Shown here: positions 3,001 through 64,000 of the stretch, one piece after another
How positions within the stretch are numbered: the first letter of the stretch is position 1
Layout: the number at the start of each line of letters is the position of its first letter
NCBI GenBank assembly: GCA_032718475.1
Contig: JAUCBJ010009057.1
Span: forward strand, 62,001-126,000
DNA length: 64,000 nt
Reading direction: 5' to 3'
Source: Nemertoderma westbladi
Lineage: Eukaryota > Animalia > Xenacoelomorpha
The notes under the pieces: generated by a model
Told to the model about the DNA's origin: nothing
The model's database searches: none
What the model saw: the letters and a program-made list of their open reading frames with translations, nothing else
Program-made: the position numbers and the translations under genes

Positions 3001-3075
3001 ATCATGTAAGTACCTCAAGTATTGGTGTATCATGTATGTACCGCAAGTATTGGTGTATCATGTATGTACCGCAAG
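1..3075. repeat. 28-bp tandem satellite, left array (~110 units), continues beyond window start
   Basis: Unit ATGTAAGTACCGCAAGTATTGGTGTATC repeated head-to-tail. Nearly invariant over the first ~600 bp, then variants appear: GTACC, ACCTC, TAGGTACTGC, a 27-bp form (TATTGTGT) and a 41-bp form (+GAGTACCTCAAGT). Confidence 0.99.
3071..3075 (+). other. 5-bp target-site duplication GCAAG (left copy; also at 13638-13642; right copy at 27847-27851)
   Basis: GCAAG|TGTAAAGG at the start of the 5' LTR and CGAACA|GCAAG after the 3' LTR. The satellite register resumes correctly after the element. Confidence 0.95.
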
Positions 3076-4246
3076 TGTAAAGGCTTTTGCGGAATTAGCC
3101 GGTTATTTTCCCCGTAAAGTACTCTGTAGTTGGTTTAACAGGCATAAAAGGCCGTGTCCTTACTGTACTGGTGTTTTAGAGGACATAAAAGCCATTTCTT
3201 CTGTATGTGTACTTTAGCGGACATAATTAGCAATTCTATGACGCAATACGCCAGATCCTCTTGAAACAGTGTAGCTACCATGACGACGGCTAACAGCTGA
3301 GGCTGTACACGTGGAGCTTTTTCTTTGTTCTCTGTTCCTTCTTTGTTCGGTCGACCAATCAGAGCGTTTTTTGACTCTGTGTTGGAGATTGTATACAGAA
3401 ACTCGTGGAGTTGAGTCAGTATGTGTTTTTATCCACTGCCTAGAACACCGGCTTTGGAACCTCCGTGTTTCAGTCTTTAGCACAACATTAGTAGGCTTAA
3501 TTATAGAACGTATATCTGTTATCATAACTTAACTCACAAACCATACCAATTCGCATCTCATTAAACATATCAATCAAACTTAACTTAACATTTTACTGCT
3601 ATTTACTGTCGGTTATTCATTATATTTGTTAATGGAATATTATATTTGGAATACTGATAAATAATCAGACACCCCAATCTTCTTGATATACTAAAGGTTA
3701 GAGAGACCGGTTACATATAACGATTGCGACTTACATTAAAGTGGTTTGAAGTGAATCTAATGCTATTTCATAGGCCCTACATGTATTGTCTGTTGTTCTC
3801 TTTATATGTGACTAAAATTAGTGAAGGTCGGCAGATCAGTGTGCAGTATTGTGTATGATTGTGACTGATAACAAAGCATCTCCTAAAGAATGCGCCATAT
3901 ACGTGAATCTATAGCCATCCCGTTGTGTCTAGTTTAAGTCATAACTCTGTTTACATATTTAGAGCGCCACGTCCTAAAGGAACTGTTAATATTTCCCGAA
4001 AGTGAATAATATTTGTCAGAGATTATATATTACGATCAGTCGAATAATACAGTAGGCTTACACCGCAATACGGTTAGGCTTCCGAATCCAGTCTCCCGGG
4101 TATATCCAGCGGGTGAATGATCGCGCATAGACTGGCTTCGGCTAATGTAGTGTATCAAATACTTGTCATAGGCTAAAGACGATCTATTATCTAGAAGACA
4201 TCCCAATTTGGCAGGTTAAACTGCTAAAGGTCTGAAAGCGCGAACA
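3076..4246 (+). repeat. 5' LTR of A1 (1171 bp, TGT...ACA)
   Basis: Near-identical to 13643-14823 and 26666-27846, but lacks one copy of the 10-bp GTGCAGTATT duplication. Confidence 0.97.
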
Positions 4247-4257
4247 ATAACAGATAT
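4247..4257 (+). promoter_or_regulatory. Non-tRNA primer-binding-site candidate ATAACAGATAT (complementary to LTR 3512-3522)
   Basis: Occupies the PBS position directly after the LTR and has no TGG. Exact reverse complement of ATATCTGTTAT at 3512-3522. Same arrangement in A2 (14824-14834 vs 14079-14089). Confidence 0.7.
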
Positions 4258-13417: not shown

Positions 13418-13642
13418 GTATTGGTGTATCATGTATGTACGGCAAGTATTGGTGTACCATGTAAGTACCTCAAGTATTGGTGTACCATGTAAGTACCGCA
13501 AGTATTGGTGTATCATGTAAGTACCGCAAGTATTGGTGTACCATGTAAGTACCTCAAGTATTGGTGTATCATGTAAGTACCTCAAGTATTGGTGTATCAT
13601 GTATGTACCGCAAGTATTGGTGTATCATGTATGTACCGCAAG
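13418..13642. repeat. 8-unit satellite block, duplicate of 2851-3075
   Basis: Same order of variant units as the block before LTR A1 (one SNP), at an offset of 10,567 bp. Confidence 0.95.
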
Positions 13643-14823
13643 TGTAAAGGCTTTTGCGGAATTAGCCGGTTATTTTCCCCGTAAAGTACTCTGTAGTTGG
13701 TTTAACAGGCATAAAAGGCCGTGTCCTTACTGTACTGGTGTTTTAGAGGACATAAAAGCCATTTCTTCTGTATGTGTACTTTAGCGGACATAATTAGCAA
13801 TTCTATGACGCAATACGCCAGATCCTCTTGAAACAGTGTAGCTACCATGACGACGGCTAACAGCTGAGGCTGTACACGTGGAGCTTTTTCTTTGTTCTCT
13901 GTTCCTTCTTTGTTCGGTCGACCAATCAGAGCGTTTTTTGACTCTGTGTTGGAGATTGTATACAGAAACTCGTGGAGTTGAGTCAGTATGTGTTTTTATC
14001 CACTGCCTAGAACACCGGCTTTGGAACCTCCGTGTTTCAGTCTTTAGCACAACATTAGTAGGCTTAATTATAGAACGTATATCTGTTATCATAACTTAAC
14101 TCACAAACCATACCAATTCGCATCTCATTAAACATATCAATCAAACTTAACTTAACATTTTACTGCTATTTACTGTCGGTTATTCATTATATTTGTTGAT
14201 GGAATATTATATTTGGAATACTGATAAATAATCAGACACCCCAATCTTCTTGATATACTAAAGGTTAGAGAGACCGGTTACATATAACGATTGCGACTTA
14301 CATTAAAGTGGTTTGAAGTCAATCTAATGCTATTTCATAGGCCCTACATGTATTGTCTGTTGTTCTCTTTATATGTGACTAAAATTAGTGAAGGTCGGCA
14401 GATCAGTGTGCAGTATTGTGCAGTATTGTGTATGATTGTGACTGATAACAAAGCATCTCCTAAAGAATGCGCCATATATGTAAATCTATAGCCATCCCGT
14501 TGTGTCTAGTTTAAGTCATAACTCTGTTTACATATTTAGAGCGCCACGTCCTAAAGGAACTGTTAATATTTCCCGAAAGTGAATAATATTTGTCAGAGAT
14601 TATATATTACGATCAGTCGAATAATACAGTAGGCTTACACCGCAATACGGTTAGGCTTCCGAATCCAGTCTCCCGGGTATATCCAGCGGGTGAATGATCG
14701 CGCATAGACTGGCTTCGGCTAATGTAGTGTATCAAATACTTGTCATAGGCTAAAGACGATCTACTATCTAGAAGACATCCCAATTTGGCAGGTTAAACTG
14801 CTAAAGGTCTGAAAGCGCAAACA
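13643..14823 (+). repeat. 5' LTR of A2 (1181 bp)
   Basis: TGTAAAGG...GCGCAAACA; matches the other two LTRs. Confidence 0.97.
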
Positions 14824-21525: not shown

Positions 21526-22334
21526 TTAACATTAAATAATAAAATTTACGGGAATAAATTTAAATTCATATATTTAATGAATTTAATAAATTGTCATTTT
21601 TATACAATTTATAATATTCCCAAAATTCCTTTAATTAATAGATCATGGGAGCGGAGATTCACTCTATTAAGTGTATTAGTGTGCGAGAATCTCCAATATA
21701 TAGTCAATAGCCGATAAAATTCATAAAATCATGTATAAAGGGGATATTGACCATTAAAGAATTACTATTAAATAGCATCCCAGATCTGTATGCATGAGAA
21801 TTACCCTAATTCTACCGCTAGCTTTCCATAATGTCACCATGGCAACAACCACGCTAGAATTAGAAGTGAGTTAAAAGAACAATAGAAAGCTTGCCCCATT
21901 GAATAGCATAGGGAATAAATAGCGCACTGCTAGTATCCAAGGATACATAATAAATAAAGTGACATTCTGGAAGGTACTGACTAACGGACAAATGGCCCGA
22001 ATGTGTACAGTTTGTGGCAGTTGTGTTGAATTTGTGCGTTCATAGGTGAATGTTACTGCTAAAGTGTGTTTACAGTAGCTAGTCGCAATTGTGAAAGTAG
22101 CCCTAACTCTCCAGAAAGAACCTGAAGTACATCTAAGCCTTTGGGACGGACAGTGGAGTGACTTGCGCCGGTTATCGTTGTCATTGTGTAGCTACATCGT
22201 TGGCGAAAGCACAGCGACGACGGTACATCGGCGCTGAGGATCTTGCACTGTCCGGGGGCAAAAGAGGGGTAGGCAGCGACGCCCGCTAGCCTAATATATA
22301 AACTCATTATAATATTGATAAACTCATAGCAGAT

Positions 22335-24851
22335 ATGACTGAGTTGATAGAAGATGATCTTGGTATCAGGGAGCGATATACTCTACCTTTACAAGCGTTT
22401 GTCGATAGCTTGATACGCGGCGACGCTGGTCCAACTACTACGGAGGATGATGGTCGTTATATCGAACCGCCAATGTCCCCGGAGCAACTTACGCGTGAAT
22501 TGGATTATAGAAAGTTCACCGCTCGCTATACGCATCGTAATGGTACGTATATGGACTTCTTAACTACCGGCCATCCTATCGATTTACACGATACGGACGA
22601 TGTAGATACCGAAAGGGAAATGGTTTTATTTAAATATCATACCCAGCGGAGTCGGAACGATAAACCGAGAATAGAACACGAGAACTCTATTCGAAACAGA
22701 CTCGAAAGGGAAGACGTTGAAGAGCCGGATAAACGCAGCGACTTCAACGATTATCTGCAATTCCTGAGAGAGACATATCTCAATATTGCCAGCCAACAAA
22801 ATCTCGAAACTCGATATCCTCAAGGTATACATCATGATCCTATGATAGAACTCAAACGACTCTATTTCACTATGATGTATCTTACCGCCGATCGACCGCT
22901 ACCTGTCGTCCCAGATAGCTTCGAACAGATGGAGGAATATTGTACAACTGGAGAACGATCACCCGCGTTTCCCCTGCAGGACGTGCGTCTTTGGTATTAC
23001 TGCGACGAATGCCCTAGACCCAATCAGCAAACGGAAAGACATAAACATCCGCGGAGATGTTGCGCTAAACACAGTTTTACACGATATACTTATGGGAGTT
23101 TCGAGCGAAACCTATTCGACATATCACCTACGGTCGCTCGGCTCAAACGATCCTTGAATAAACCAATGATCAGAGTTCCGGAATACTCGGTCAGACCTCC
23201 TCATTCCTCAGTTAGACCTCAGACTCTTGATCCTAATAGTATCACTGATCCTCCCGAACTGTACTCACTGTTCAAAGATCTAGTGTTACCCGAACAGTTG
23301 ATCGGTGGTACCCCGGTGGTGGGCTCGCTAGATATTCGCCAACCCTACCTAGCCGGATTAGGACGCGGTCATATGATATCGCCGTTTAACCCGTACAACC
23401 ATCCCGGCTTCACCCCAATACAACCTGTTACGGAAGTCGAAGAGAGCGTCGTACGAAACGCGTTAGACTCTATTCGGCAGAAAATCGGAAAGGGAACTTA
23501 CGATTGTTTGGAGAAACGTAAATTGCAGCAACAAGTCCAAGCGGTGAAGGAATTAGTTTTACCCCAGTTCGATAGAGAAATACAAAATCTCGAGGAGGAC
23601 ATCGAACGTGGACGAACCTACTCTTTACAAGAGTTCCTAGATGAGCGTCTACAACTACAAGCGGAGGAAAATCAGCTCGAGGAAAGACATATAGAACTAG
23701 ATGAGAGAGAAGAAGCAGCTTTAGCCCAACCCGAAGCTCAAATCCTTATGACGGATCTCTACTCCAAAACCATCCTTCATCCCTCGATGGTTCCCCATTT
23801 CGGAGACAAACTCTTTGCGACGGTACAACCCCAACCGGTTGATATCAACCTAAGATCTCGAGATCTTATCGCTGACGCTCCCATGTTGCAACGTCCGCCC
23901 ATCGAAGCCGCTCGTGTCGATGGTATACTCGTTGAACCTCCGGACAATAGAGCGGATCTTGTCCGTCGCATGGTACACGATGTAAACATACGCGCTAGAC
24001 CTTTACCGGACTCGTTTTATGGGATCAAAGATCACCCTTATTACGTCAATCTAACACAATATTACATGGTAAAACCAGAAGATCCTACACATAGTCTGAG
24101 GTTTCTACCACTCATAAATCCTCTCGATCTTGTCGAACTCGAACAACTGCAGAAACATCTGGATCAGTTAGTTAAAATAAACTCATTTCGAAAACCATAT
24201 AATGTTTCCAGAATAGAGAAAGAAACAATACCTCCGTATAATCTTGATGGATTCATCAAAACTCGATTAGTACACTGGAATCTTGACGTGTTATTCGAGG
24301 AGGAAAGAATACAACGATATGGAGATGTGGAAACATATACCACACAATATTTAAAGTATAGAGACCTACCTAATGCTAGCGAATGCGCTACCTTGTGGCA
24401 TCCAGTGGGAATGACCCTCGAAAACGCCACTAAAGAGTGGAACGAAACTCTTAACGTTATCGAGATGTATGGAGTTGTCACTTACGATAACGAAGGTAGC
24501 GTTCCGGTTGGAGAACTGGGAACTACGCGGATGATACACATACGAGGACTCGCTGGTTCTACCCACGTATTTACTCGAGCGTGTTCCGATGTGATTGATT
24601 ATTCTTTTGAAACTCTTACTGAGACACAAAAGAAACTCCGACATGGACAATTCGAACTCGCGCAGCGTTACGTCACCGACACCGAGCGCAAACCGGCCAT
24701 GGGTATTGATGGATCGATGTTACCCCAGCCCGTGCTTGAGATGTTGTTAACGAAAGAATCCTTAAAATCGGCTCAGCTGTTTATGGAGATCTACAAAACG
24801 ACTTTCGGAATATGGAGAACATTCCATACCCTTTCGTTGATACTCAGCTGA
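22335..24851 (+). CDS. Extra ORF of element A, N-terminal part (838 aa; unknown function; Cys/His cluster and coiled-coil-like segment)
   Basis: Long open frame between pol and the 3' LTR. Contains CDEC…HKHPRRCCAKH and an E/Q/L-rich helical stretch. No evident signal peptide. Homologous sequence is present in element B. Confidence 0.8.
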   Translation: MTELIEDDLGIRERYTLPLQAFVDSLIRGDAGPTTTEDDGRYIEPPMSPEQLTRELDYRKFTARYTHRNGTYMDFLTTGHPIDLHDTDDVDTEREMVLFKYHTQRSRNDKPRIEHENSIRNRLEREDVEEPDKRSDFNDYLQFLRETYLNIASQQNLETRYPQGIHHDPMIELKRLYFTMMYLTADRPLPVVPDSFEQMEEYCTTGERSPAFPLQDVRLWYYCDECPRPNQQTERHKHPRRCCAKHSFTRYTYGSFERNLFDISPTVARLKRSLNKPMIRVPEYSVRPPHSSVRPQTLDPNSITDPPELYSLFKDLVLPEQLIGGTPVVGSLDIRQPYLAGLGRGHMISPFNPYNHPGFTPIQPVTEVEESVVRNALDSIRQKIGKGTYDCLEKRKLQQQVQAVKELVLPQFDREIQNLEEDIERGRTYSLQEFLDERLQLQAEENQLEERHIELDEREEAALAQPEAQILMTDLYSKTILHPSMVPHFGDKLFATVQPQPVDINLRSRDLIADAPMLQRPPIEAARVDGILVEPPDNRADLVRRMVHDVNIRARPLPDSFYGIKDHPYYVNLTQYYMVKPEDPTHSLRFLPLINPLDLVELEQLQKHLDQLVKINSFRKPYNVSRIEKETIPPYNLDGFIKTRLVHWNLDVLFEEERIQRYGDVETYTTQYLKYRDLPNASECATLWHPVGMTLENATKEWNETLNVIEMYGVVTYDNEGSVPVGELGTTRMIHIRGLAGSTHVFTRACSDVIDYSFETLTETQKKLRHGQFELAQRYVTDTERKPAMGIDGSMLPQPVLEMLLTKESLKSAQLFMEIYKTTFGIWRTFHTLSLILS

Positions 24852-26587
24852 TTGCTCCCTGGGCAGAAGGCCGATGTTTCTTCCGCACCATGTATGCCAA
24901 TACACCCAGCGGCATTACTAAAGTACAACGAACCTCCATCGGACATCTTGCCTTTCAAGAATACGGATGGAATTTCAAGGTTGGAAATCCTATCAATTAC
25001 CAACAAGTATATGGAGACCATTATTCTCGTTTATACTTTGATGGACCATTGACCGCACCTGGCGCCGTGTATAGCTTTATGAGTGTTCCACTTCGTCCCT
25101 CCTTAGCTATATACACGATCTTTGAAAACGCAGCACTTGCCGGTTGGCTAGCCGATGTGTGCAGTCGTACCATACGCGCCCATCCCTTAATACTTGGAAC
25201 CAAACTCGCCAAGTTAGATGAACACAATAAATTCATCCGCTTCGAATGTTTCAGGCGCTTTCTGACTCCGTTCCGTAACGTTGATAGTCAGTTCAAGGAC
25301 CGCGCTCTGACCAAACTCAGCCTAAGAGACTCAGCTGCGGAGAAGCTAAACAGCGCGGGATTTGCCCTCTTTCAGGACGTTTGTATACAGAACTTACATT
25401 CATCTGTTATACAAAGACCCCGAATACCCACGGGTTATTCTGTCGTGGAAGTTCAGACAGTGGGTCCGCTTGCGGAGACAGCCGCACCTACCTCAGCTAT
25501 GCAATTGGAAGACGAACCAATATGCTTAGAATCTGAAGCGATCCAGCCTACAGCACCCCGGAGCAGCGATAACGATTACGTCTTGGAGTGGTATCAAGGT
25601 CCACAATGTCTCACTGCATACGATTATCGACACGCCAACTATGTTTCTCGAAAACGTTGTCGATTATGCGCATCGAGAGACCATGTCACCCCTATGGACT
25701 CAGACGTACCCTGCTCCTATTTCCACGAACAACCGATGATGGAGATCTATTGTGCGTATTGCAGACTTAATAACTCGCATATTTTTGCAGTCTGCCCCCA
25801 ATTTATGACCCAATGCCACCACTGTCAACTTAAAGGACATGCCAGTTATAATTGCCCCTTTAACCGCGATTTAGAAAGCGTAGATGAGATGATTACCCTG
25901 CGCTACATCCGAGCTTGGGAAGCGAACGCGGATTTACATTGTGAGTCCTGCCATCGCTACTACCCTGGACGCTCTTACGAGGGAGTTTACGCGTTCCATC
26001 CTTATTTATTCGCGTCTGTGGAACAAAAAACACGCACACCGAGTTATGAACTAATGAAGCGTGTTGGTGAGTGTATTTCCACCAAATTTGTTCGAAAATA
26101 TCTTAGGAACGTCAATCCTAACGATATTACTTCATACCATTTGATCAATTTCATCCGTCAAGACCCTGAGTATGGCGATTTATTTATCAACTCGCACCCT
26201 GAGTTACAGGAAGTATCTCGACGGCCCTACGAATATCGAGCCCGAGAACGCGAGCTGGAAAGAACCATTAAACCGAGGAAGTTTCTCACCACTCACGGTC
26301 CACCTACCGCCATTGTCCAGACGACCCGTCAAGGACCCGTCGGAGCTGCTGTCCTAAGACGCACCCTAAAGGCCGTTAGACCTCGCTCCACTGAAGTTGA
26401 TATCGATCAACCAGGTACCTCGACCGGCGGATACACCGATCGTAATCCTAAACCTTCTGATGCAATTGTATTGCACCCTTCACCCAGGAGTTATAGCCCT
26501 CCTAGTAAAGTGGCTTGCCCCAAAGAGAAAAGGACTCTTGCTAGCCTCAAAAAACTGCGTAAACGCCGTCCGCGTAAGAAAGACTAA
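24812..26587 (+). CDS. Extra ORF of element A, C-terminal part (591 aa; CCHC zinc knuckles, basic NLS-like tail); probably one ~1,417-aa ORF with the preceding frame
   Basis: CRLCASRDH…C, CAYCRLNNSHIFAVC and canonical CX2CX4HX4C CHHCQLKGHASYNC; ends KKLRKRRPRKKD. One added base (e.g. in the A4 run at 24795-24798) would fuse the two frames. Confidence 0.8.
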   Translation: MENIPYPFVDTQLIAPWAEGRCFFRTMYANTPSGITKVQRTSIGHLAFQEYGWNFKVGNPINYQQVYGDHYSRLYFDGPLTAPGAVYSFMSVPLRPSLAIYTIFENAALAGWLADVCSRTIRAHPLILGTKLAKLDEHNKFIRFECFRRFLTPFRNVDSQFKDRALTKLSLRDSAAEKLNSAGFALFQDVCIQNLHSSVIQRPRIPTGYSVVEVQTVGPLAETAAPTSAMQLEDEPICLESEAIQPTAPRSSDNDYVLEWYQGPQCLTAYDYRHANYVSRKRCRLCASRDHVTPMDSDVPCSYFHEQPMMEIYCAYCRLNNSHIFAVCPQFMTQCHHCQLKGHASYNCPFNRDLESVDEMITLRYIRAWEANADLHCESCHRYYPGRSYEGVYAFHPYLFASVEQKTRTPSYELMKRVGECISTKFVRKYLRNVNPNDITSYHLINFIRQDPEYGDLFINSHPELQEVSRRPYEYRARERELERTIKPRKFLTTHGPPTAIVQTTRQGPVGAAVLRRTLKAVRPRSTEVDIDQPGTSTGGYTDRNPKPSDAIVLHPSPRSYSPPSKVACPKEKRTLASLKKLRKRRPRKKD

Positions 26588-26665: not shown

Positions 26666-27846
26666 TGTAAAGGCTTTCGCGGAATTAGCCGGTTATTTTC
26701 CCCGTAAAGTACTCTGTAGTTGGTTTAACAGGCATAAAAGGCCGTGTCCTTACTGTACTGGTGTTTTAGAGGACATAAAAGCCATTTCTTCTGTATGTGT
26801 ACTTTAGCGGACATAATTAGCAATTCTATGACGCAATACGCCTGATCCTCTTGAAACAGTGTAGCTACCATGACGACGGCTAACAGCTGAGGCTGTACAC
26901 GTGGAGCTTTTTCTTTGTTCTCTGTTCCTTCTTTGTTCGGTCGACCAATCAGAGCGTTTTTTGACTCTGTGTTGGAGATTGTATACAGAAACTCGTGGAG
27001 TTGAGTCAGTATGTGTTTTTATCCACTGCCTAGAACACCGGCTTTGGAACCTTCGTGTTTCAGTCTTTAGCACAACAGTAGTAGGCTTAATTATAGAATG
27101 TATATCTGTTATCATAACTTAACTCACAAACCATACCAATTCGCATCTCATTAAACATATCAATCAAACTTAACTTAACATTTTACTGCTATTTACTGTC
27201 GGTTATTCATTATATTTGTTGATGGAATATTATATTTGGAATACTGATAAATAATCAGACACCCCAATCTTCTTGATATACTAAAGGTTAGGGAGACCGG
27301 TTACATATAACGATTGCGACTTACATTAAAGTGGTTTGAAGTGAATCTAATGCTATTTCATAGGCCCTACATGTATTGTCTGTTGTTCTCTTTATATGTG
27401 ACTAAAATTAGTGAAGGTCGGCAGATCAGTGTGCAGTATTGTGCAGTATTGTGTATGATTGTGACTGATAACAAAGCATCTCCTAAAGAATGCGCCATAT
27501 CCGTGAATCTATAGCCATCCCGTTGTGTCTAGTTTAAGTCATAACTCTGTTTACATATTTAGAGCGCCACGTCCTAAAGGAACTGTTAATATTTCCCGAA
27601 AGTGAATAATATTTGTCAGAGATTATATATTACGATCAGTCGAATAATACAGTAGGCTTACACCGCAATACGGTTAGGCTTCCGAATCCAGTCTCCCGGG
27701 TATATCCAGCGGGTGAATGATCGCGCATAGACTGGCTTCGGCTAATGTAGTGTATCAAATACTTGTCATAGGCTAAAGACGATCTATTATCTAGAAGACA
27801 TCCCAATTTGGCAGGTTAAACTGCTAAAGGTCTGAAAGCGCGAACA
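26666..27846 (+). repeat. 3' LTR of element A (1181 bp)
   Basis: TGTAAAGG...GCGCGAACA followed by the GCAAG TSD and satellite. Confidence 0.98.
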
Positions 27847-33800: not shown

Positions 33801-36800
33801 GTATCATGTAAGTACCGCAAGTATTGGTGTATCATGTAAGTACCGCAAGTATTGGTGTATCATGTAAGTACCGCAAGTATTGGTGTACCATGTAAGTACC
33901 GCAAGTATTGGTGTACCATGTAAGTACCGCAAGTATTGGTGTATCATGTAAGTACCGCAAGTATTGGTGTACCATGTAAGTACCGCAAGTATTGGTGTAC
34001 CATGTAAGTACCGCAAGTATTGGTGTATCATGTAAGTACCGCAAGTATTGCTGTACCATGTAAGTACCTCAAGTATTGGTGTATCATGTAAGTACCTCAA
34101 GTATTGGTGTATCATGTAAGTACCTCAAGTATTGGTGTATCATGTAAGTACCGCAAGTATTGCTGTACCATGTAAGTACCTCAAGTATTGGTGTATCATG
34201 TAAGTACCTCAATTATTGGTGTATCATGTAAGTACCTCAAGTATTGGTGTATCATGTATGTACCGCAAGTATTGATGTATCATGTAAGTACTGCAAGTAT
34301 TGGTGTACCATGTAAGTACCGCAAGTATTGGTGTACCATGTAAGTACCGCAAGTATTGGTGTACCATGTAAGTACCGCAAGTATTGGTGTACCATGTAAG
34401 TACCGCAAGTATTGGTGTATCATGTAAGTACCGCAAGTATTGGTGTACCATGTAAGTACCGCAAGTATTGGTGTACCATGTAAGTACCGCAAGTATTGGT
34501 GTATCATGTAAGTACCGNNNNNNNNNNNNNNNNNNNNNNNNNNNNNNNNNNNNNNNNNNNNNNNNNNNNNNNNNNNNNNNNNNNNNNNNNNNNNNNNNNN
34601 NNNNNNNNNNNNNNNNNTAAGTACCTCAAGTATTGGTGTACCATGTAAGTACCGCAAGTGAGTACCTCAAGTATTGGTGTATCATGTAAGTACCGCAAGT
34701 ATTGTTGTACCATGTAAGTACCGCAAGTGAGTACATCAAGTATTGGTGTACCATGTAAGTACCGCAAGTGAGTACATCAAGTATTGGTGTACCATGTAAT
34801 TACCGCAAGTATTGGTGTACCATGTAAGTACCGCAACTATTGGTGTACCATGTAAGTACCGCAAGTGAGTACATCAAGTATTGGTGTACCATGTAAGTAC
34901 CGCAAGTATTGGTGTACCATGTAAGTACCGCAAGTATTGGTGTTCCATGTAAGTACCGCAAGTATTGGTGTACCATGTAAGTACCGCAAGTGAGTACATC
35001 AAGTATTGGTGTACCATGTAAGTATCGCAAGTATTGGTGTATCATGTAAGTACCGCAAGTATTGGTGTATCATGTAAGTACCGCAAGTGAGTACATCAAG
35101 TATTGGTGTACCATGTAAGTACCGCAAGTATTGGTGTATCATGTAAGTACCGCAAGTATTGGTGTACCATGTAAGTACCGCAAGTGAGTACATCAAGTAT
35201 TGGTGTACCATGTAAGTACCGCAAGTATTTGTGTATCATGTAAGTACCGCAAGTATTGGTGTATCATGTAAGTACCGCAAGTGAGTACATCAAGTATTGG
35301 TGTCCCATGTAAGTACCGCAAGTATTGGTGTACCATGTAAGTACCGCAACTATTGGTGTATCATGTAAGTACCGCAAGTATTGGTGTACCATGTAAGTAC
35401 CGCAAGTATTGGTGTATCATTTAAGTACCGCAAGTATTGGTGTACCATGTAAGTACCGCAAGTGAGTACATCAAGTATTGGTGTACCATGTAAGTACCGC
35501 AAGTATTGGTGTATCATGTATGTACGGCAAGTATTGGTGTACCATGTAAGTACCGCAAGTATTGGTGTATCATGTAAGTACCGCAAGTATTGGTGTACCA
35601 TGTAAGTACCGCAAGTGAGTACATCAAGTATTGGTGTACCATGTAAGTACCGCAAGTATTGGTGTATCATGTAAGTACCGCAAGTATTGGTGTATCATTT
35701 AAGTACCGCAAGTGAGTACATCAAGTATTGGTGTACCATGTAAGTACCGCAAGTATTGGTGTACCATGTAAGTACCGCAACTATTGGTGTATCATGTAAG
35801 TACCGCAAGTATTGGTGTACCATGTAAGTACCGCAAGAGAGTACATCAAGTATTGGTGTACCATGTAAGTACCGCAAGTATTGGTGTATCATGTAAGTAC
35901 CGCAAGTATTGGTGTATCATGTAAGTACCGCAAGTATTGGTGTATCATGTAAGTACCGCAAGTATTGGTGTACCATGTAAGTACCGCAAGTGAGTACATC
36001 AAGTATTGGTGTACCATGTAAGTACCGCAAGTATTGGTGTATCATGTAAGTACCGCAAGTATTGGTGTATCATGTAAGTACCGCAAGTATTGGTGTATCA
36101 TGTAAGTACCGCAAGTATTGGTGTATCATGTAAGTACCGCAAGTATTGGTGTACCATGTAAGTACCTCAAGTATTGGTTTATCATGTAAGTACCGCAAGT
36201 ATTGGTGTATCATGTAAGTACCGCAAGTATTGGTGTACCATGTAAGTACCGCAAGTATTGGTGTATCATGTAAGTACCGCAAGTATTGGTGTATCATGTA
36301 AGTACCGCAAGTATTGGTGTATCATGTAAGTACCGCAAGTATTGGTGTACCATGTAAGTACCGCAAGTGAGTACATCAAGTATTGGTGTACCATGTAAGT
36401 ACCGCAAGTATTGGTGTATCATGTAAGTACCGCAAGTATTGGTGTATCATGTAAGTACCGCAAGTATTGGTGTATCATGTAAGTACCGCAAGTATTGGTG
36501 TATCATGTAAGTACCGCAAGTATTGGTGTACCATGTAAGTACCTCAAGTATTGGTTTATCATGTAAGTACCGCAAGTATTGGTGTATCATGTAAGTACCG
36601 CAAGTATTGGTGTACCATGTAAGTACCTCAAGTATTGGTGTATCATGTAAGTACCGCAAGTATTGGTGTATCATGTAAGTACCGCAAGTATTGGTGTATC
36701 ATGTAAGTACCGCAAGTGAGTACATCAAGTATTGGTGTACCATGTAAGTACCGCAAGTATTGGTGTACCATGTAAGTACCGCAAGTGAGTACATCAAGTA

Positions 36801-55029: not shown

Positions 55030-56229
55030 TGTTCTCGCTTTTAAGACCTTTGGCAGTTTAACCCGCCAAATCTATATGTCTTCTAGGTTATAAATCGACT
55101 TTAGCCTATGACAAGTATTTGACACAAATAAATCCAACATTAGCCGAAGCCAGTCTATGCGCGACCATTCACCCGCTGGATATACCCGGGAGACTGGATT
55201 CGGATGCTTTAATTTGATTGCGGTGCAGGTCTACCGTACTATTCGATTGATCGTTAATATATAATCTCTGACAAATATTATTCACTTTCGGGAAATATTA
55301 GCAGTTCCTTTAGGACGTGGCGCTCTATCTATATAAACAGAGCTATGGCTTACACTAAACACAACGAATGGATTATAAGTTACACATAAGGCGCATTCTT
55401 TAGGAGATGCTTTGTTACGCGGACAAGCACATACAGACTATTGCACACCGCTGCACACTGAATTGCCGATAGTCACTGATTTTAATCATATATAAAGAGA
55501 ATAGCAACCGGCATTTGTAGAGCCTATAAAATAGCATTCAATTCACTACACACTACAAACCACGATAATATAAGCCGCAATTGCTATATGTTGCCGGTCT
55601 CTCTAACCTTAGTGTATCAAGAAGATCGGGGTTTCTGATCGTTTATAGTTATTCTCCAAATAACAATATGCAAACGAATGATACATTTAATAACAAACAG
55701 CAAATAGCAGTAAATAATGTGCAATACAGCAGCAGGTACCGTACCGGTCCTCACGCTGTCCAGTGCTGGTCATGTACCGGTAACAGTTATGTGATCTTAT
55801 AATTAAAGACGTTCTAATGTTGGAATAATTCAGAATAATTCCATGGCCGATGTTCATGGCATCAGGAAAACCAACACACTGAACCCTGTGAGCTGCTGCA
55901 GGTAGATTTCAACACAGAAAGGAAAAGCTCTCATTGGCAGAGTTCCATATTCCACAGGTTCCAAATCGTCTAAAATGCCAAACCACCCTAGCCTTTGCAG
56001 CCAATTACATTGATTTAGCCAACATAAGGCTGAATCGCTCTGCTTGGTTGACCTTGCTCTGGTTGGTTGATCGAACCCAACAAAGAGGCCGTCGCTAGGC
56101 AAATCAGCCAATCAGCCGGTAGCTTTCATCCTTTGAGTTAGGGAGTTTTTCTTTAGAGTATTTGAGCGCATTAAGGGAAACTGGATGGCGAAGCAAAAGG
56201 GCCAGTTATATCCCGCAAAAGCTTTTACA
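55030..56229 (-). repeat. 3' LTR of element B (1200 bp)
   Basis: Minus strand reads TGTAAAAGCTTTTGCGG…GCGAGAACA. The U5-side half is clearly homologous to the A LTR; the U3-side ~400 bp is largely divergent. Confidence 0.92.
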
Positions 56230-56307
56230 CCGCTCCCAGAAAATGGGATTTAATACTATAAAATATAAAAAATCACAGTTTCTAAAATATAAAAATACTC
56301 TAAACAG

Positions 56308-56652
56308 TTAGTCTGTCTTGCATGGACGGCGTTTATGCAGTTTTTTAAAGCTAGCAAGAGTCCTTTTCTCTTTGGGGGGAGCCACTTTACTAGGAGGGCC
56401 ATAACTCCTGGGTGCAATGTGATTGCATCATAAGGTGTAGGATTATGGTCGGGGTATCCGCCGTTTCGATATGCTTCTCCTCGAGCTGATTTTCCTCCGC
56501 TCATCGTTGGATACGTTCGTCCAAACTCTCGCCGAGAATAGGGTCATCCAAGCTCAATATCGTCTTAGAGATTCGGGATTTCCCAATCGAACTGGGATAA
56601 AGCCAATCTGTTTACCGCTTGGACTTGCCGTTATAATTTAAGTTTATCTGAA
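56308..56652 (-). pseudogene. Remnant of the extra ORF in element B (internal deletion of ~2.7 kb, stops and frameshifts)
   Basis: Minus strand encodes …GGYPDHNPTPYDAITLHP/PRSYGPPSKVAPPKEKRTLASFKKLHKRRPCKTD*, joined directly to a segment matching QVQAV…AEENQLEE of ORF 22335-24851. Confidence 0.85.
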
Positions 56653-57194
56653 TGTTAGCTTATTCAATCCCGCCAACACCCCATAAAGTTATAAGCCGAT
56701 AAGCAATATTGGGAGCCACGAGGTTGGGCAATTAACCAACTCGTGCCATCCCAATAAGAGTGGGAAGGAAGCACACAATAGAGGGTCAGGGGCCAAACCC
56801 CTAACCCAGAGAGAACAGGTGGAGTGAACGGGAATACTCCACGGGGCGCCAACAAGGGTATTAACCAATCAGAGGGGGGGAATGGCATCGATTGAGTAGC
56901 AGTAAGGCCACCGTGCAATATAACCAATAACCTATTAATCAGTGATTCAGTTATCTCAGTGCAGCAGTGCTAGCGTAGGGTACAGTCAATTAGTTTAGTT
57001 AGGGGATCACGGGACTTTAGTTACCGTATCCCGCCTTGTACACAATATACCTATATCTATATCCTATGCCCTGTTATTATTATACACCGAACTTCAGAAC
57101 TCAGTTACCTTTATTTCACCCTTATACACGGCGGGGACGCGTGGACTAAATTACCACATCGGATAAATCGGGATCCCTCCTGGATCCCGTCACA
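56653..57194 (+). repeat. Probable 5' LTR of element C (~542 bp, TGT…ACA)
   Basis: The start is fixed by the nesting junction. The end is inferred from GTCACA, preceded by a perfect hairpin (57169-57189) and followed by a PBS-like GTAACTAAA. The second LTR is not in the window, so the end is unconfirmed. Confidence 0.6.
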
Positions 57195-57274
57195 GTAACT
57201 AAATCCGAGCTGCCGCCCCAGTTAAACTCTGAGAACTATACTGCTAGCTAGTCGAACTCCACCGAGCAGACGAG

Positions 57275-60200
57275 ATGAGTGAATCGGGCGAGACACCGCC
57301 GCGGACCCCGGACGAAGATCAAACGATCCGCGAGGCCGCGACCAAGCGATACAGGCCCACGACGCCGGAGCCATCGATAACGGGCGAACCGGAAGTTGAG
57401 GATGAGGGGGGCCTGGAACCCGAAGTTGAGCTAAGAGAGAAAGAGAGCGAGATGGAGGGAGAAGGAGATGAGTCGACACGGGACGGAGAACGGCGCGCCG
57501 ATGTCGCCGGCCAGCTACCGGCCGAGGGCGACGAGCGGCCCACCGAAACGGTGGGGCCGACGGTGCGACGCCGGACGCGAAGAGACGGAGGAGAGATTGG
57601 TACCGATGTCGCCGGCCAGCTACAGGCCGAGGGCGACGGACGGCCCACCGGAACGGCGACGGTGGAGCCGCCGGTACGACGACGAACCCGGAGGAACGGA
57701 GGAGAGGTCGGCGACGAGGACGTCGGGGTTTCAGAGCGACTTCGACGGGCCTACAACGCGACCCGAAAGCTGATGAAGGACACCAAGAAGGAAGGGGCGA
57801 AGGTAGACGAGGTGAGACTGAGAAAGCGACTAGGTGAGTCGGATAGACACTTAAATTACCTAATACGTTTTGGGCAGAGAGAACTAGCCGAGGAGAGGGC
57901 ACAGGGAATTGCAGGCGAACTGTTTGAACTATGGGAGTGTGGGAGTATGGAACCTAGCGTAGCGCCAGTGTACATAGGGCCATACTTGGTCGATGCCCGG
58001 GGAGTGAAACCAGTGGGTTGGAGGGGACCTGAGGGGGGCGAATCCGAGGTTAACCCCGAGGATTCGGCCTCGTCGGTCGGAGAAAGCTCCGGGAAACGGG
58101 AGAAAGTTAGTAGGTCGGGAAGGCGGGGGAAGTCCGTCGTAACCGATAAGTCTGTTACATCCTCCGCGAAAGGAAGAGCGGTGAGAGAGATAGGTGCCGA
58201 ATATCGTTTCAGCATGGCAGCGAAAGATCATAGAGAAATGAAGGAACGGCTAGAGGAAGGGAGACTGCGGTTAGAGAGGGAAACGGCATTGCTTAAAGAA
58301 ACAGGAGAGAGGGCCGAAAGGGCTTTGAAAAGCCTAAGGGAGTATGATGAGATAGAGGAAAGGGAGTGTAGGGAGCGTGAGGCGAGAGGGGAAAAAGAAC
58401 GCAAGGAGCGTGAGGCGGAACGCAAGGAGCGTGAGGCGAGAGGGGAAAAGGAACGCAAGGAGCGTGAGGCGGAACGCAAGGAGCGTGAGGCGAGAGAGGA
58501 AAGGGAACGGAAGGAGCGTGAGGCAAGGGAGGAAAGGGAACGCAAGGAGCGTGAGGCGGAACGCAAGGAGCGTGAGGCGAGAGAGGAAAAGGAACGCAAG
58601 GAGCGCGAAGTGAGACGAAGGGAGAGTATTAAGAGTGCTGCAGAGTCGGCCATTAGGGACACCCAGGAGCGTAAGAGGAGAGTGGCAGAGACTGAGGGAG
58701 AAAACAAGAAAATAGAGAGACTACAGAGTGAGTCTGCGGGAGATGAGATTAAACGGGCGCACGAGTTGCAACTCGTGCGAAAAGCGCCGTCTGAAAGCGG
58801 GACCGGCTCGAGTATTTTTAGGGAGCCGGAGGCCGTAGAAACATTTATTAATACCCCACTGACAGGGACCGCACGACAGACTCAAGACTGGTGCGACCGT
58901 ACGAGCGGGGGGGGGGGGTAATAATAATATTGGTACAGTAGACGTTGTTAATATTGATAATACCGTATGGGACAACACTAATCAAACCTTTATTACAGGT
59001 AATGCTTTACATAGTGGTAGTAATTTAAATTTAAATCAGAACGCCCCTAGTATTAATGTAGGAAATAACTCTAATATTAATGTAGCTACGCAAAATAATT
59101 CAAATAATCAAAATAATAACCCAGATTCGAATCTACAAAATAATTTAAATAACGCAATTACGCAAAACAATTTGAATAATTTAAATAATGACCTATGCCC
59201 GAATTTACAAAATAATTCAGATAACGTAGTCGTACAGAATAATACAAATAACTTTGTTCCAAACGAACAAAATAATTCCGTTTCCAATATGGGTGCTATT
59301 AATGTAAACACGTCGGGCCTACATAACCAGGCCGAAGAGGGCCTGGTAGGTCACATAGTCGATAGCCAGACGGATGAGGGCCTGGTAGGCCACGTAGTTA
59401 GTAGACAGGGAATAGAGGGCCTGGTAGGCCACGTAGTTAGTAGACAGGGAGCAGAGGGCCTGGTAGGCCACGTAGTTGGTAGGCAGGGAGTAGAGGGCCT
59501 GGTAGGCCACGCAATAGCAGAGGGAGAGGCGGGGGTGAATGGACCCGACCGCAGTAGGGTTGATGTGTCGACTAGAGAGGTATATAATAGCGGGGAGAGA
59601 GGTAGCGAAGTTAGATGTAGCGAGTGGGGGGGGGGGGGGCTACGAGGACCCCACAACAGAGAGTTAGCGGCGAGAGGGGGGGGGGGGGCAGGGAGTGTCC
59701 CACAGCCGTCAGCGGATAATGCGAGGGCCGAGATAGGTAAACCGCAACGACCGGCGACGGAAAGTAATAGGGGGATCGCGAGTATCCCCAGCGACGTGCG
59801 ACCGAGCAGAGAGAGACAGGTTGACGTCGCGAGAGGGCAGACGGAGCGTCGAGCCCGATCAGAGGAGGGAAGAAGAACAGTGGGGTTTAACCGGGAGGTC
59901 GACGAGAGATCTCGCGAGCGGGAATATTCCACTGATAGGAGAAGAAAGGAAGACAGTAGTAGAAGTATCGCCGCAAACGATGGAAGAGCGAGGACGGACA
60001 GCGAGCCGTCGGTAGTCGAGATGAGAACGGAGAGTCAGTGGGGTCGGACTCCGGGAGATTGCCGTCGCCCCGGAGGGATGCAACCCGGTGAGATGCATTA
60101 CACGACGAGAGAGGGGTACATGATGTACCGGTACGAAGATGAGAACAGTAGAGGGGGGGGGTCGAAGAGAAACTTTCCGACGGGATATACTTACCGAACG

Positions 60201-60602
60201 AGAATACGGTAGCCACGGGGAGGATTATTCGAGAAGAATAAACTTCGATCCCGAGCAACACATGCAGACTGTAGGGCATACTGTAGGCCTTACTGCACAT
60301 ACCGTAGGCCATACTGAGAGAGGCAATGTAGGCGATAGGATAGCGCGGACGACGGAATTAAACCCCGAAGTCGCGGAGTACATACCGGCGGGTAGGCCAG
60401 AAGCTGATAGGCCTATACCGGTACCAGCACAGCAGTATGACTACAGCATGCGAGGACATAACATATACCCAGGGGAGGGGGGAATTATTGCGGATAGGTG
60501 CATGGGCCCCAACATATTAACATCAACCCCATTCCCAAACATACCGGTGGGGGGGGGGGACAGGGTGACATTCCCCCATCACAATATCAACAATATACCC
60601 CG
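57275..60602 (+). CDS. gag: Long low-complexity N-terminal Gag extension of element C, split by frameshifts at poly-G runs
   Basis: Frames 57275-58921, ~58920-60212 and 60139-60609 switch at G12 (58907-58918), G9 (60153-60161) and G11 (60549-60559). Contains ERKEREA repeats, an Asn-rich island and EGLVGHVVSRQG repeats. Confidence 0.7.
58370..58610 (+). repeat. Coding minisatellite (ERKEREA; 21/33-bp units) in element C gag
   Basis: GAACGCAAGGAGCGTGAGGCG repeated in frame. Confidence 0.92.
59335..59515 (+). repeat. 39-bp coding repeat x5 (EGLVGHVVSRQG) in element C gag
   Basis: GAGGGCCTGGTAGG(C/T)CAC recurs every 39 bp. Confidence 0.92.
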
Positions 60603-63600
60603 ATGGTAGCAAGAACAACGAGACCCTTGGACGAAAACAGATCGTGTGACACAGATATATGGAGGGGGCCGCTACCCCCAATGACATACCCAAGCCAGAG
60701 AAGGTCAAGAAGTAGGACAGACGGAACGCACCAAACAGGGGAAACTATACAGCACCCGTCGAATCCATTGGAAGCGCAGGCGATAGGGATGGCCACGTTG
60801 ATCGATGCTTTGAAAACGAGGATCGAGTTACCACCCGTGGAACCATTCAAGTTCGACGGGAGTAGGCCGGAAGAATATTTACAATTTCGGCGAATGTATA
60901 GTAACGAAATACTAACAAAAAACTTGACGCAGGCGGGCCTAAAGTATCTACAAGTGTATACGGGAGGCCCAGCATACGATATCGTGAGGCAATACCAAGG
61001 AATAGAGGGCGGCTTCACGACAGCATGGCGGGCACTGGATAGGGAATACGGGCACCCGGCCAAGATCATCAGGCAGACCCTGAGAGGCATAACATCGGGT
61101 GGCCTACAGGATAACCCCGTTAGCATTAAGACGTTTGCTAACAAAGTCGAAAAGGCGCTAATCGTACTGAAGACGCTAGACGCGCCGTACGAGCTCAATG
61201 CGTCCAACAACATCACCACGATAGCGCAGGCACTACCGAACTGGCTGCGCAACAAGTGGAGAAAAATCGCCTTCTCCACTCGAGATAAGAAGGGTGCGGA
61301 ACCAGGTTTAGAAGAAATGTCAAACTTCTTAAATTACGAGGCTGAACTAATAACGGACCCAGTCTATAGTGAAGATAGCCTGGGAAAGGGACCAAAGACA
61401 GATCACTACAGGCCGAAACCAGAGCACAATACATCAAACGCATTGCCGAGGCTCAGGCAATCATTGCCATACGCAGCGACGCAGGGGACTGCAAGTCCAC
61501 AGGCAAACGAAGATAAGACAACATCATGGAACGGACAGGGGAACAATAACAACATGAATAAACATAACCCCAGTACGTCCAGTAGGCCAAATCCAGTCAA
61601 TAAGAATAGTAGGGACTTTGGTACGAACATAGCTGCGATACGCAATGCATTGTATAAAGAGGGCTACGACCCAAAGAGCAAATGCCAGTTACACGCAAAT
61701 GCGCTTCATAAAACCATGAACTGCAGGTACTGGCAGGCGCTACCAAGGCAAGACCAGATAGATTACGCGTCGAGCAATAAGATATGCTCGCGATGTGTGA
61801 AGAGTGGACACAAGGCCAGAGAGTGCCAAGAGAAGCCTGTCAAGTTTGGCCAAAGGAGAGGCCAAACGATGGCAACGAGCACGGTAGGGGCGAAGAAGAG
61901 AGGCACGGTGTTACTTGGAGTAGTACCGGTGCGAGTGATCGGGGAAGGCAATCGATCAGTAACAACACTAATGCTGGTTGATAGTGGAGCTGCCTTCACA
62001 TTAGTAGAGGAATGGGTAGCCGAAGAAATAGGATTGAGAACAAGGCCAAGAAGGATGGCGGTAACAACCATCTCTAGCAAAGATGAGATCCTAGAGATGA
62101 GGACAGGACGGTGCGCAATTGCAGCAGTAGCACCAGGATGCGATTATGGGGCAACCATCGACCCCATCCAAGTAATAGAGTCAATTAACATCAATGCCAG
62201 GCGGCCAACCAACATCGAGGTCGAGCAATACAAATTCCTGGACAACATTGACTTCTCGATCCCAGACATGGACGTTAGGAAGGTATCCATCATAGTAGGA
62301 ATGGACTGCCCGACGGCCCACGAAAGAATGCAAACGGTCTTCGGCAAAGACAAGCAGAGCGACCCGGTGGCCATATTAACACCATTCGGGTGGACGCTGA
62401 GTGGTCCAATAAAGAGTAAGATACCATTTAGGATGTCGGAGACATCAGGATGCATGTTCGCGGGAACAATGCAGGAAATGGGTGATGAGGGAGCAGAGGA
62501 GCAGCTTAAAAGACTGCTCAGACAAGACTTTGAGGGACTGAAAGAGACCGGGGTCGGGACCTCGGTAGAAGACAAGCAGGCTCTACAAAGCGTGGAGGAA
62601 TCGATGACGTGTGATGAGGGGCGGTATACAATAGGAATGGTATGGAAACTACCGAAGATACCGCTACCCGATAATAGGGGGATGGTACTCACGAGACTCC
62701 GCAAGCTGAAACAAACACTACAACGGAGCCCCGAGAAGAACGAGTACATTCACAAAACCATTAAGAAGTACGTCGAGAAAGGATGGGCCGTGGAGTTACC
62801 GGTCGACGAGCCGAACACGGACAGGACATACTACCTGCCACTCCACGTAACATTAGACCCAAAGAAAGGTAAACTTAGGATGGTAGTCGATGCATCGGCA
62901 AAGACCGACGGAAAATGCTTAAACGATTACCTGTTGGAAGGCCCAAATATTTACAATTCGGGCATAGAAGTACTACTTAGATTTAGGAATGGGAAACACG
63001 CCTTCACGTGTGACATAGAAGGCATGTTCAACCAGGTCCGTGTAACGGAAGAAGACAGTGACAGTCAACGCTTCTTATGGTATAACGGCGAAGAAGAACC
63101 GCCGATAATACCAGCGTATAAGATGGTAGTACAAAAAATGGGGGCCAAGTCGTCCTCATTTACGACGACTATGGCAGTGAGAGACACGGTAAAGGGCAAG
63201 GAAGATAGATACAGCAGTAGGGCCGTCGATATGATCCGACGCGGCTTCTACGTAGACGACGGTATGGAGTCTGGAAATACGGTTGAGGAGATACTGGAAA
63301 CAGGGCGCGAGGTTCGCGACATCCTGAAAGGATCCGGCTTCAACCTGACCAAATTCCAATCCAGTTCAGAAGAATTTATCAAGGCAATAGAGGATAAGAA
63401 ACCAGAATCGACCATGGACAACCCTACAACAGCCAAAGGACAGGACATGGCGAATAAGAGAACACAATCGCAGCAAAAGGCATTGGGAATCGTGTGGGAT
63501 AGAGGAACAGACGAACTGAAGTACCAGCTGAGCCAAGAGGGCGCAGACACCCATACGAAGAGGGGTTATGTATCGTATATAGCAAGGATATACGATCCCC

Positions 63601-64000
63601 TAGGCCTAGCATCCCCATTACTAGTCACGGGGAAACAGATACTCAAGAGAGTATATAAATTGAAGGATGAGTGGGACATAGAGGTACCAGAGGACATCAA
63701 GAAACAGTGGAGAAAATGGACAGGAGACTTGGAAAGAATGGGAACATACAACATGCCGCGAGTGTATTTTCCGGACGGGGACATGACGAGTCTGGACCTA
63801 CATATGTTCTCCGACGCGTCGTTAGAGGCATACGGAGCGGCACTCTATTTAGTACAACGAGAGGGGGCTCACAAGCCCAGACTAGCCTTTAGCAAAGCTA
63901 AGTCAACGCCGCCAGATTCAGCATCTGTTCCCAAGTTAGAATTGACAGCTGCGAGACTAGGAGTTAGAGCCACAGCCTACCTAGTGGATACTATTCCCAA
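60603..64000 (+). CDS. gag-pol: Gag core-PR-RT-RNase H of element C, open to the window end (absent from the ORF track, which lists only ORFs that end in the window)
   Basis: Manual translation in one frame: LPPVEPFKFDGSRPEEYLQF (DUF1759-like), CSRCVKSGHKAREC, LVDSGA (GAT at 61980), KLRMVVDAS, CDIEGMFNQV, FYVDD (TAC at 63249), LHMFSDAS (63801), VPKLEL. Confidence 0.93.
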   Translation, partial: MVARTTRPLDENRSCDTDIWRGPLPPMTYPSQRRSRSRTDGTHQTGETIQHPSNPLEAQAIGMATLIDALKTRIELPPVEPFKFDGSRPEEYLQFRRMYSNEILTKNLTQAGLKYLQVYTGGPAYDIVRQYQGIEGGFTTAWRALDREYGHPAKIIRQTLRGITSGGLQDNPVSIKTFANKVEKALIVLKTLDAPYELNASNNITTIAQALPNWLRNKWRKIAFSTRDKKGAEPGLEEMSNFLNYEAELITDPVYSEDSLGKGPKTDHYRPKPEHNTSNALPRLRQSLPYAATQGTASPQANEDKTTSWNGQGNNNNMNKHNPSTSSRPNPVNKNSRDFGTNIAAIRNALYKEGYDPKSKCQLHANALHKTMNCRYWQALPRQDQIDYASSNKICSRCVKSGHKARECQEKPVKFGQRRGQTMATSTVGAKKRGTVLLGVVPVRVIGEGNRSVTTLMLVDSGAAFTLVEEWVAEEIGLRTRPRRMAVTTISSKDEILEMRTGRCAIAAVAPGCDYGATIDPIQVIESININARRPTNIEVEQYKFLDNIDFSIPDMDVRKVSIIVGMDCPTAHERMQTVFGKDKQSDPVAILTPFGWTLSGPIKSKIPFRMSETSGCMFAGTMQEMGDEGAEEQLKRLLRQDFEGLKETGVGTSVEDKQALQSVEESMTCDEGRYTIGMVWKLPKIPLPDNRGMVLTRLRKLKQTLQRSPEKNEYIHKTIKKYVEKGWAVELPVDEPNTDRTYYLPLHVTLDPKKGKLRMVVDASAKTDGKCLNDYLLEGPNIYNSGIEVLLRFRNGKHAFTCDIEGMFNQVRVTEEDSDSQRFLWYNGEEEPPIIPAYKMVVQKMGAKSSSFTTTMAVRDTVKGKEDRYSSRAVDMIRRGFYVDDGMESGNTVEEILETGREVRDILKGSGFNLTKFQSSSEEFIKAIEDKKPESTMDNPTTAKGQDMANKRTQSQQKALGIVWDRGTDELKYQLSQEGADTHTKRGYVSYIARIYDPLGLASPLLVTGKQILKRVYKLKDEWDIEVPEDIKKQWRKWTGDLERMGTYNMPRVYFPDGDMTSLDLHMFSDASLEAYGAALYLVQREGAHKPRLAFSKAKSTPPDSASVPKLELTAARLGVRATAYLVDTIP

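Follow-up and report, generated by a model that had tools for sequence, protein, structure and literature searches.

Element C, a BEL/Pao retrotransposon of Nemertoderma westbladi, has a non-tRNA primer binding site complementary to its own LTR and is likely to be self-primed

The Locus and Its Elements

The window, i.e., the whole stretch of 64,000 nucleotides of Nemertoderma westbladi DNA analysed here (contig JAUCBJ010009057.1), is an array of a 28-bp satellite in which LTR elements are inserted. The satellite occupies positions 1-3076, 13418-13643 and 27847-55029, with higher-order variants and a gap of 100 N at 34518-34617, and the setting is possibly satellite-associated and centromere-like. 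In two copies of one element, A, the start follows GCAAG (at 3076 and 13643) and falls on an identical phase of the satellite; for the second copy, GCAAG forms a 5-bp target site duplication (TSD). A divergent A-like element (55030-56648, reverse strand; ~80% identity in the LTR part compared), which does not contain the stretch matching 23696-26425 of A, is the host of a further element, C, which starts at 56653, where similarity to the inverted A-like element ends, and extends past the end of the window. The features considered below are:

3512-3522 (+): contiguous 11-nt complement of A's primer binding site (PBS) within the LTR, reached in 4 of 2000 shuffles
4247-4257 (+): non-tRNA PBS of element A, the LTR end being fixed by the 3' LTR at 26667-27846
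55780-55790 (-): apparently homologous pairing site in the divergent A-like host LTR, read by eye; it ends TTAC as in C, and the host's own PBS lies beyond the window
56648-56652 (+): CTGAA, candidate left TSD of C, directly 5' of the TG where the A-like host sequence stops
56653-57194 (+): 5' LTR of C (542 bp, TG...CA), delimited by steps in depth at either end and by loose ends in other-copy contigs
56917-56923 (+): TATA-like AATATAA of a putative promoter
56944-56954 (+): initiator (Inr)-like segment with the predicted transcription start site (TSS); probably a promoter element, not a primer
57012-57024 (+): complement of the PBS and predicted self-primer, which would end 3' at C57024; based on complementarity, fold and shuffles
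57025-57139 (+): stem of 57025-57040 with 57125-57139, stacked on the primer-PBS helix, as predicted by the minimum free energy fold only
57169-57189 (+): 8-bp U5 hairpin just 5' of the LTR end, a fold prediction
57195-57206 (+): non-tRNA PBS of C, adjoining the LTR end
57275-63998 (+): gag-pol of element C, running off the window

The gag-pol of C is divided over four reading frames, with frame changes near 58863-58921, 60124-60212 and 60498-60609. Its pol matches DUF1759, Peptidase_A17 (E 4e-38) and, below the Pfam cut-off, an aspartyl protease; the RT motif YVDD is present in the translation, and the integrase lies beyond the window. On these domain matches C belongs to BEL/Pao (Belpaoviridae), with the gag-PR-RT-RH order, and it resembles the Belpaoviridae as profiled by the ICTV in this order, in Peptidase_A17 and DUF1759, in an LTR length within 0.2-1.2 kb and in its presumed animal host (PMC8742986). 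The gag region (57248-60609), which gave no Pfam match, is unusually long and comprises a charged coiled-coil repeat, an Asn-rich stretch and a 39-bp repeat. Element A is likewise BEL/Pao by its domain matches. Between its integrase and 3' LTR, A carries two long overlapping ORFs on the forward strand (22302-24851 and 24740-26587; 849 and 615 aa), which match nothing in Pfam except for a zinc knuckle below threshold; a Cys/His-rich stretch is present in the second. ARAGORN detected no tRNA in the window, and an Rfam search returned a single chance match (E 0.18).

The LTR of Element C

The initial annotation cautioned that it had placed the LTR end of C partly by means of the PBS motif. This caveat is largely removed by contigs of other copies from public runs (labelled X1, X2, X4 and X6), which place the end at ~57194 when the motif is not used. 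Summed depth in X1, a coarse measure for an LTR end, falls from 125,131 (57185-57194) to 47,187 (57195-57204) and 10,633 (57205-57214), and the pattern in X2 is alike. Loose ends with mixed sequence occur behind 57196 in X1 (four contigs, agreement 0.54) and behind 57195 in X4 (one contig), and one X4 contig passes the terminal GTCACA and then continues into unrelated sequence. Together, the fall in depth, the loose ends and the read-through contig set the LTR end at 57194, give or take 1-2 bases. Depth further suggests that C LTRs greatly outnumber internal parts. The first 10 nt past the LTR are common to several contigs that diverge after 57204, which matches the expectation for a conserved PBS.

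The sequence motifs lie where they had been annotated: AATATAA at 56917, GATTCAGTTAT at 56944, GGACTTTAGTTAC at 57012, GTCACA ending at 57194, GTAACTAAATCC at 57195 and the gag ATG at 57275. The T of the TATA-like word is located 30 nt upstream of A56949, which is therefore taken as the predicted TSS. A TATA-like word is likewise present upstream in two X4 contigs that derive from divergent copies, the DNA between this word and 56945 differs, and divergent copies join at 56945/6; a single X6 contig (X6 being RNA only by guess) spans 56935-56992 and is uninformative as to the TSS.

A Non-tRNA Primer Binding Site and Its Complement in the LTR

As the initial annotation had noted, no PBS starting with TGG follows the LTR end: TGG occurs just twice between 57024 and the ATG, at 57142 and 57181, and both were discarded as PBS starts because they are inside the LTR. 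The pairing of the PBS with 57012-57024 also holds as described, with nine perfect pairs, a bulge and three more, and at -13.2 kcal/mol this is the best window of the LTR. The complementarity exceeds chance, modestly: the same anchored 9-nt perfect match is reached in 11 of 2000 dinucleotide shuffles of the C LTR, the duplex energy is equalled in 2 of 200, and the match with free offset in 8 of 300. Counting the 9-mer across the window is uninformative (2 matches, 1.24 expected).

Folding of the C leader, which had been proposed as a check, favours the same helix: in the ensemble, the PBS pairs with 57016-57024 at ~0.7 and with 57012-57014 at ~0.5. The fold energy of the whole leader is ordinary (z -0.70). 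Among the variants listed for other-copy contigs, none falls within 57009-57036, and both flanks are variable; the commonest variant of the PBS, C57199T (~10% of depth), turns a G-C into a G-U pair, so that pairing is kept. The observation of a self-complementary, non-tRNA PBS in C is confirmed.

A search with canonical GTRAG...YAG junctions gave no spliced partner in C, and no intron-bearing variant of C is present among the contig matches listed. A looser splice search produced a match of 11 nt at offset 1, with a poor donor and an equally poor acceptor in U3, upstream of the predicted TSS, which was judged to be due to chance.

A second complementary site, at 56944-56954, had been proposed as well, overlapping the Inr-like motif. 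It exists as written, but its significance did not hold up: at -7.1 kcal/mol it ranks fourth in a sliding scan, with two other LTR windows as well as 57012-57024 ahead of it, it is never within the top two partners of any PBS base in the fold ensemble, and as the main partner of the PBS it was rejected. This bears on the idea that priming in C follows Tf1 exactly, the primer being the initial 11 nt of the transcript (56944-56954). The site is indeed located at the predicted TSS, divergent copies are alike from 56945 on, and in one related family (L047) a TATA-like word precedes the pairing site by only 24 nt. However, the duplex in C contains one mismatch and one G-U pair at background energy, and with a TSS at A56949 within TCAGT, the transcript would include just 6 nt of the site. 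Priming with the very first nucleotides is therefore considered very improbable, and 57012-57024, which lies ~63 nt downstream of the predicted TSS, is retained as the partner site.

PBS-LTR Pairing in Related Elements

An alignment of C, A and 25 of 44 homologues was used to fetch the best 80 of 567 loci; viral contig collections were scanned as well, and no related loci were recovered from these. A first, unanchored inverted-repeat scan was noisy and overlooked spliced cases (see below). For 11 families, each represented by one of the 80 loci, the position of the LTR 3' end follows from a second LTR copy. In all 13 families (A, C and these 11), the first 12 nt after the LTR end are free of TGG. 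A perfect match of at least 10 nt between a PBS and its own LTR is found in 9 of the 13 (including A; C has 9 nt), compared to 3 of 156 swapped pairs and 1 of 11 in a 3'-flank control; when A and C are excluded, 8 of 11 families retain such a match. The C match is the weakest among the positives (nine perfect pairs plus bulge), and 9-nt matches also occur in 8 of the 156 swapped pairs. Besides C, the test is missed by L020 (7 nt), L041 (6 nt) and L071 (8 nt): the family of L041 does reach 11 nt with an LTR end set further upstream, and L071 is degenerate, with GG at its acceptor. The LTR of L020 (6150-7290) contains an internal tandem duplication of ~400 bp and has no PBS match by the rule, making it the single unexplained miss.

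In a blind scan of 32 loci, for most of which the LTR end had not been fixed independently, 12 gave spliced matches of 10-14 nt, L061 a contiguous PBS-like match and L050 a doubtful one; in 18 loci there was none, and many of these have too little upstream DNA. For the 23 loci that have more than 480 nt upstream, 12 of 23 match their own LTR over at least 10 nt; swapped combinations do so in 26 of 506 cases, many of them pairings of close relatives. A second set of 13 loci (L081-L093) was fetched after the rule had been fixed. The LTR end is fixed in six of them, and five of these six give 11-12 nt across GTRAG...YAG introns; the sixth, L088, has 8 nt, which by eye becomes 10 of 11 when one mismatch is allowed. 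Some families recur between the two sets (L093 resembles L033, and L090 resembles L010). The loci of the second set are contigs in prokaryote metagenome-assembled genomes that encode BEL/Pao RT-RH, several with both LTRs, and are likely animal-host contamination of the bins.

The loci of the relatives come from metagenome contigs, in each of which several copies may have been merged by assembly. Fold support for the pairing is strong in L047 and L025, weak in L068 (0.37) and ~0.1 in L061. L083 differs from L084 at two bases of the exon ends, and also at both of the PBS bases that face them. At the level of sequence, the comparison demonstrates that the pairing is kept in many relatives with family-specific co-variation, and it makes a strong case that selection acts on PBS-LTR pairing.

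The comparison also bears on what the pairing is for. That priming at the PBS is done by a host RNA without a CCA end, e.g., half of a tRNA or some other small RNA, the LTR match in C being due to chance, might be entertained: half-tRNA priming exists in Copia lineages, according to the accessible part of PMC6317226, and the match in C taken alone has a p of ~0.005-0.03. However, PBS sequences vary by family and track their own LTRs, which speaks against a small set of host primers, and this reading appears extremely improbable. Alternatively, the pairing could be a conserved leader structure, with a role in packaging, dimerisation or translation control, or a switch gated by splicing, and priming would be accomplished by something else. 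Co-variation reveals that a pairing is selected, not what its role is. Yet the paired arm starts 0-9 nt past the terminal CA, where a primer must end, it nearly always begins with GT, and an alternative PBS is absent from 13 of 13 families. A function other than priming is therefore regarded as unlikely, and the case that the pairing primes reverse transcription is, as a prediction from sequence, a good one.

Partner Sites That Span Predicted LTR Introns

The initial annotation overlooked that in most relatives the partner site spans an LTR intron: most PBS-LTR matches are present only across a predicted GT-AG intron within the LTR. In L013, L033, L045 and L068, for instance, the best PBS match crosses a GTAAGT...YAG intron. 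In the LTR of L013/L030, either of two acceptors (giving introns of 75 or 305 nt) restores the same 11-nt PBS match. Precise absence of an intron is seen between the 5' and 3' LTR of L068, one copy of which is without exactly the predicted intron (117 nt), and in the 3' LTR of L002 compared to L006 (536 nt). Such precisely intron-less copies are what reverse transcription of spliced RNA would leave behind, collapsed assemblies being an alternative.

Contiguous forms of the partner site are found in C, A, L025, L065, L046 and L061, and possibly arose via intron loss during reverse transcription. On a quick tree, the fewest changes between contiguous and spliced forms number three for 17 labelled rows, a count that gives no direction.

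Elements A and C as Distant Lineages

The initial annotation regarded self-priming as a trait at the level of the clade and the shared start RTAAC of the two PBSs as its mark in A and C. The latter is not supported: across families, the common feature is a PBS starting with GT (AT in A). The A-like host LTR site ends TTAC, and its counterpart in A ends TTAT. In A, the PBS-LTR pairing is not favoured by fold prediction. The RT tree that had been suggested was run as a quick search without named reference elements, and PBS types were surveyed in the relatives. A and C share 35% identity in RT-RH and are placed on long branches that are not joined, and their forced union is neither shown nor rejected (p-AU 0.17). 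Low identity and separate placement indicate that C is a distant additional lineage and do not amount to proof of a clade of A and C. As for the trait itself, the tests of own versus swapped pairs show that a non-tRNA, self-complementary PBS is shared across the lineage, but A and C are not shown to be sisters and priming is a prediction from the pairing. Overall, the initial interpretation is partly supported.

Proposed Priming Mechanism

Since C is without a tRNA-type PBS and its PBS pairs with 57012-57024 of its own LTR, the element likely primes reverse transcription with its own RNA. Transcription would begin near 56949, and the 5' part of the RNA would fold back such that 57012-57024 anneals to the PBS, with the predicted stem stacked on its 3' side. 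By analogy with Tf1, RNase H might then cut after C57024, which would yield a capped primer of ~76 nt, compared to the 11 nt of Tf1. Extension of this primer by RT through U5, from 57194 back to 57025, would generate a strong-stop DNA of ~170 nt, which would jump to the 3' R. In the majority of relatives, completion of the partner would require that the predicted LTR intron in the R region be spliced out, so that only spliced RNA would prime.

The same pairing might be used differently, with a primer that derives from the 3'-terminal R copy of the RNA or is provided in trans by short transcripts that consist of the LTR only. In relatives read by eye, the partner site lies upstream of poly(A)-like signals, which puts it in R and thus twice in each RNA, and the apparent excess of LTRs over internal parts would also suit such a primer. 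On the other side, the cis fold in C is local (~180 nt, p ~0.7), and Tf1 works in cis, according to the accessible part of PMC7175516. A primer from the 3' R or in trans therefore seems quite unlikely, and folding back of the 5' part of the same RNA is preferred for C. For the lineage as a whole, we lean somewhat towards the view that a large and old part of BEL/Pao primes with an internal piece of its own RNA, that in most families this primer is built by the spliceosome through the joining of two LTR exons, such that only spliced RNA is copied, and that C and A would represent deeply diverged, intron-less forms.

Comparison to Known Self-Priming Elements

Self-priming is described for the Tf1/Tf2/Tj1, Tf1/sushi and Tcn1 groups, which are Ty3/gypsy chromoviruses (PMC7175516; PMC4600332; bioRxiv 10.1101/2022.12.06.519325, as far as the accessible parts of these sources go). 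Like the Tf1/sushi group, as portrayed there, C has no tRNA PBS, its PBS just past the terminal CA pairs with its own R region (~11 nt in Tf1), and helices are predicted to flank the PBS duplex. In contrast, the pol of C is that of BEL/Pao, not of a Ty3/gypsy chromovirus. Moreover, the partner is predicted to be internal in C and L006 (~63 and ~95 nt below the predicted TSS, respectively), whereas in the accessible accounts Tf1 uses its first 11 nt, i.e., the 5' end of the RNA, and in most relatives of C the partner spans an LTR intron, unlike in Tf1. Those accounts outline a three-duplex "pretzel" around the PBS of Tf1; for C, fold prediction gives a central duplex, a stacked stem and a U5 hairpin, and not the two PBS-adjacent duplexes of Tf1 as such.

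According to the accessible portion of PMC6317226, self-priming is given for Tf1/sushi, Tcn1 and TAR only. The TAR lineage (Houba, Osr-1) of plant Ty1/copia is a case outside Tf1/sushi in which self-priming is predicted from sequence, as in C; it belongs to another superfamily and another kingdom, and a primer built across an intron is not mentioned in that portion. For BEL/Pao, the ICTV Belpaoviridae/Semotivirus profile gives, as a descriptive trait and not as the phylogenetic criterion, an 18-nt PBS for tRNA-Arg or tRNA-Gly and calls replication poorly understood (PMC8742986), as opposed to the lack of a tRNA PBS in C and the 12 other families tested here. The accessible parts of five BEL/Pao or LTR surveys (PMC554778; PMC3118150; PMC6238403; PMC8556966; PMC2774666) contain no wording on PBS, priming or tRNA, and those of PMC3601003, PMC13524379 and PMC3286476 nothing on self-priming in BEL/Pao. 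We found no report of BEL/Pao self-priming in the literature covered; most subscription journals, Repbase reports and supplements lie outside this scope, and a prior mention is possible.

Implications

If true, BEL/Pao would be a third LTR superfamily with self-priming, and would use a variant with an internal cut. In most families the primer would be assembled by splicing, tying host RNA processing to the start of reverse transcription. A PBS of this kind would also account for failed PBS calls in tRNA-based annotation. To this, the window itself adds one more very divergent, intron-less example.
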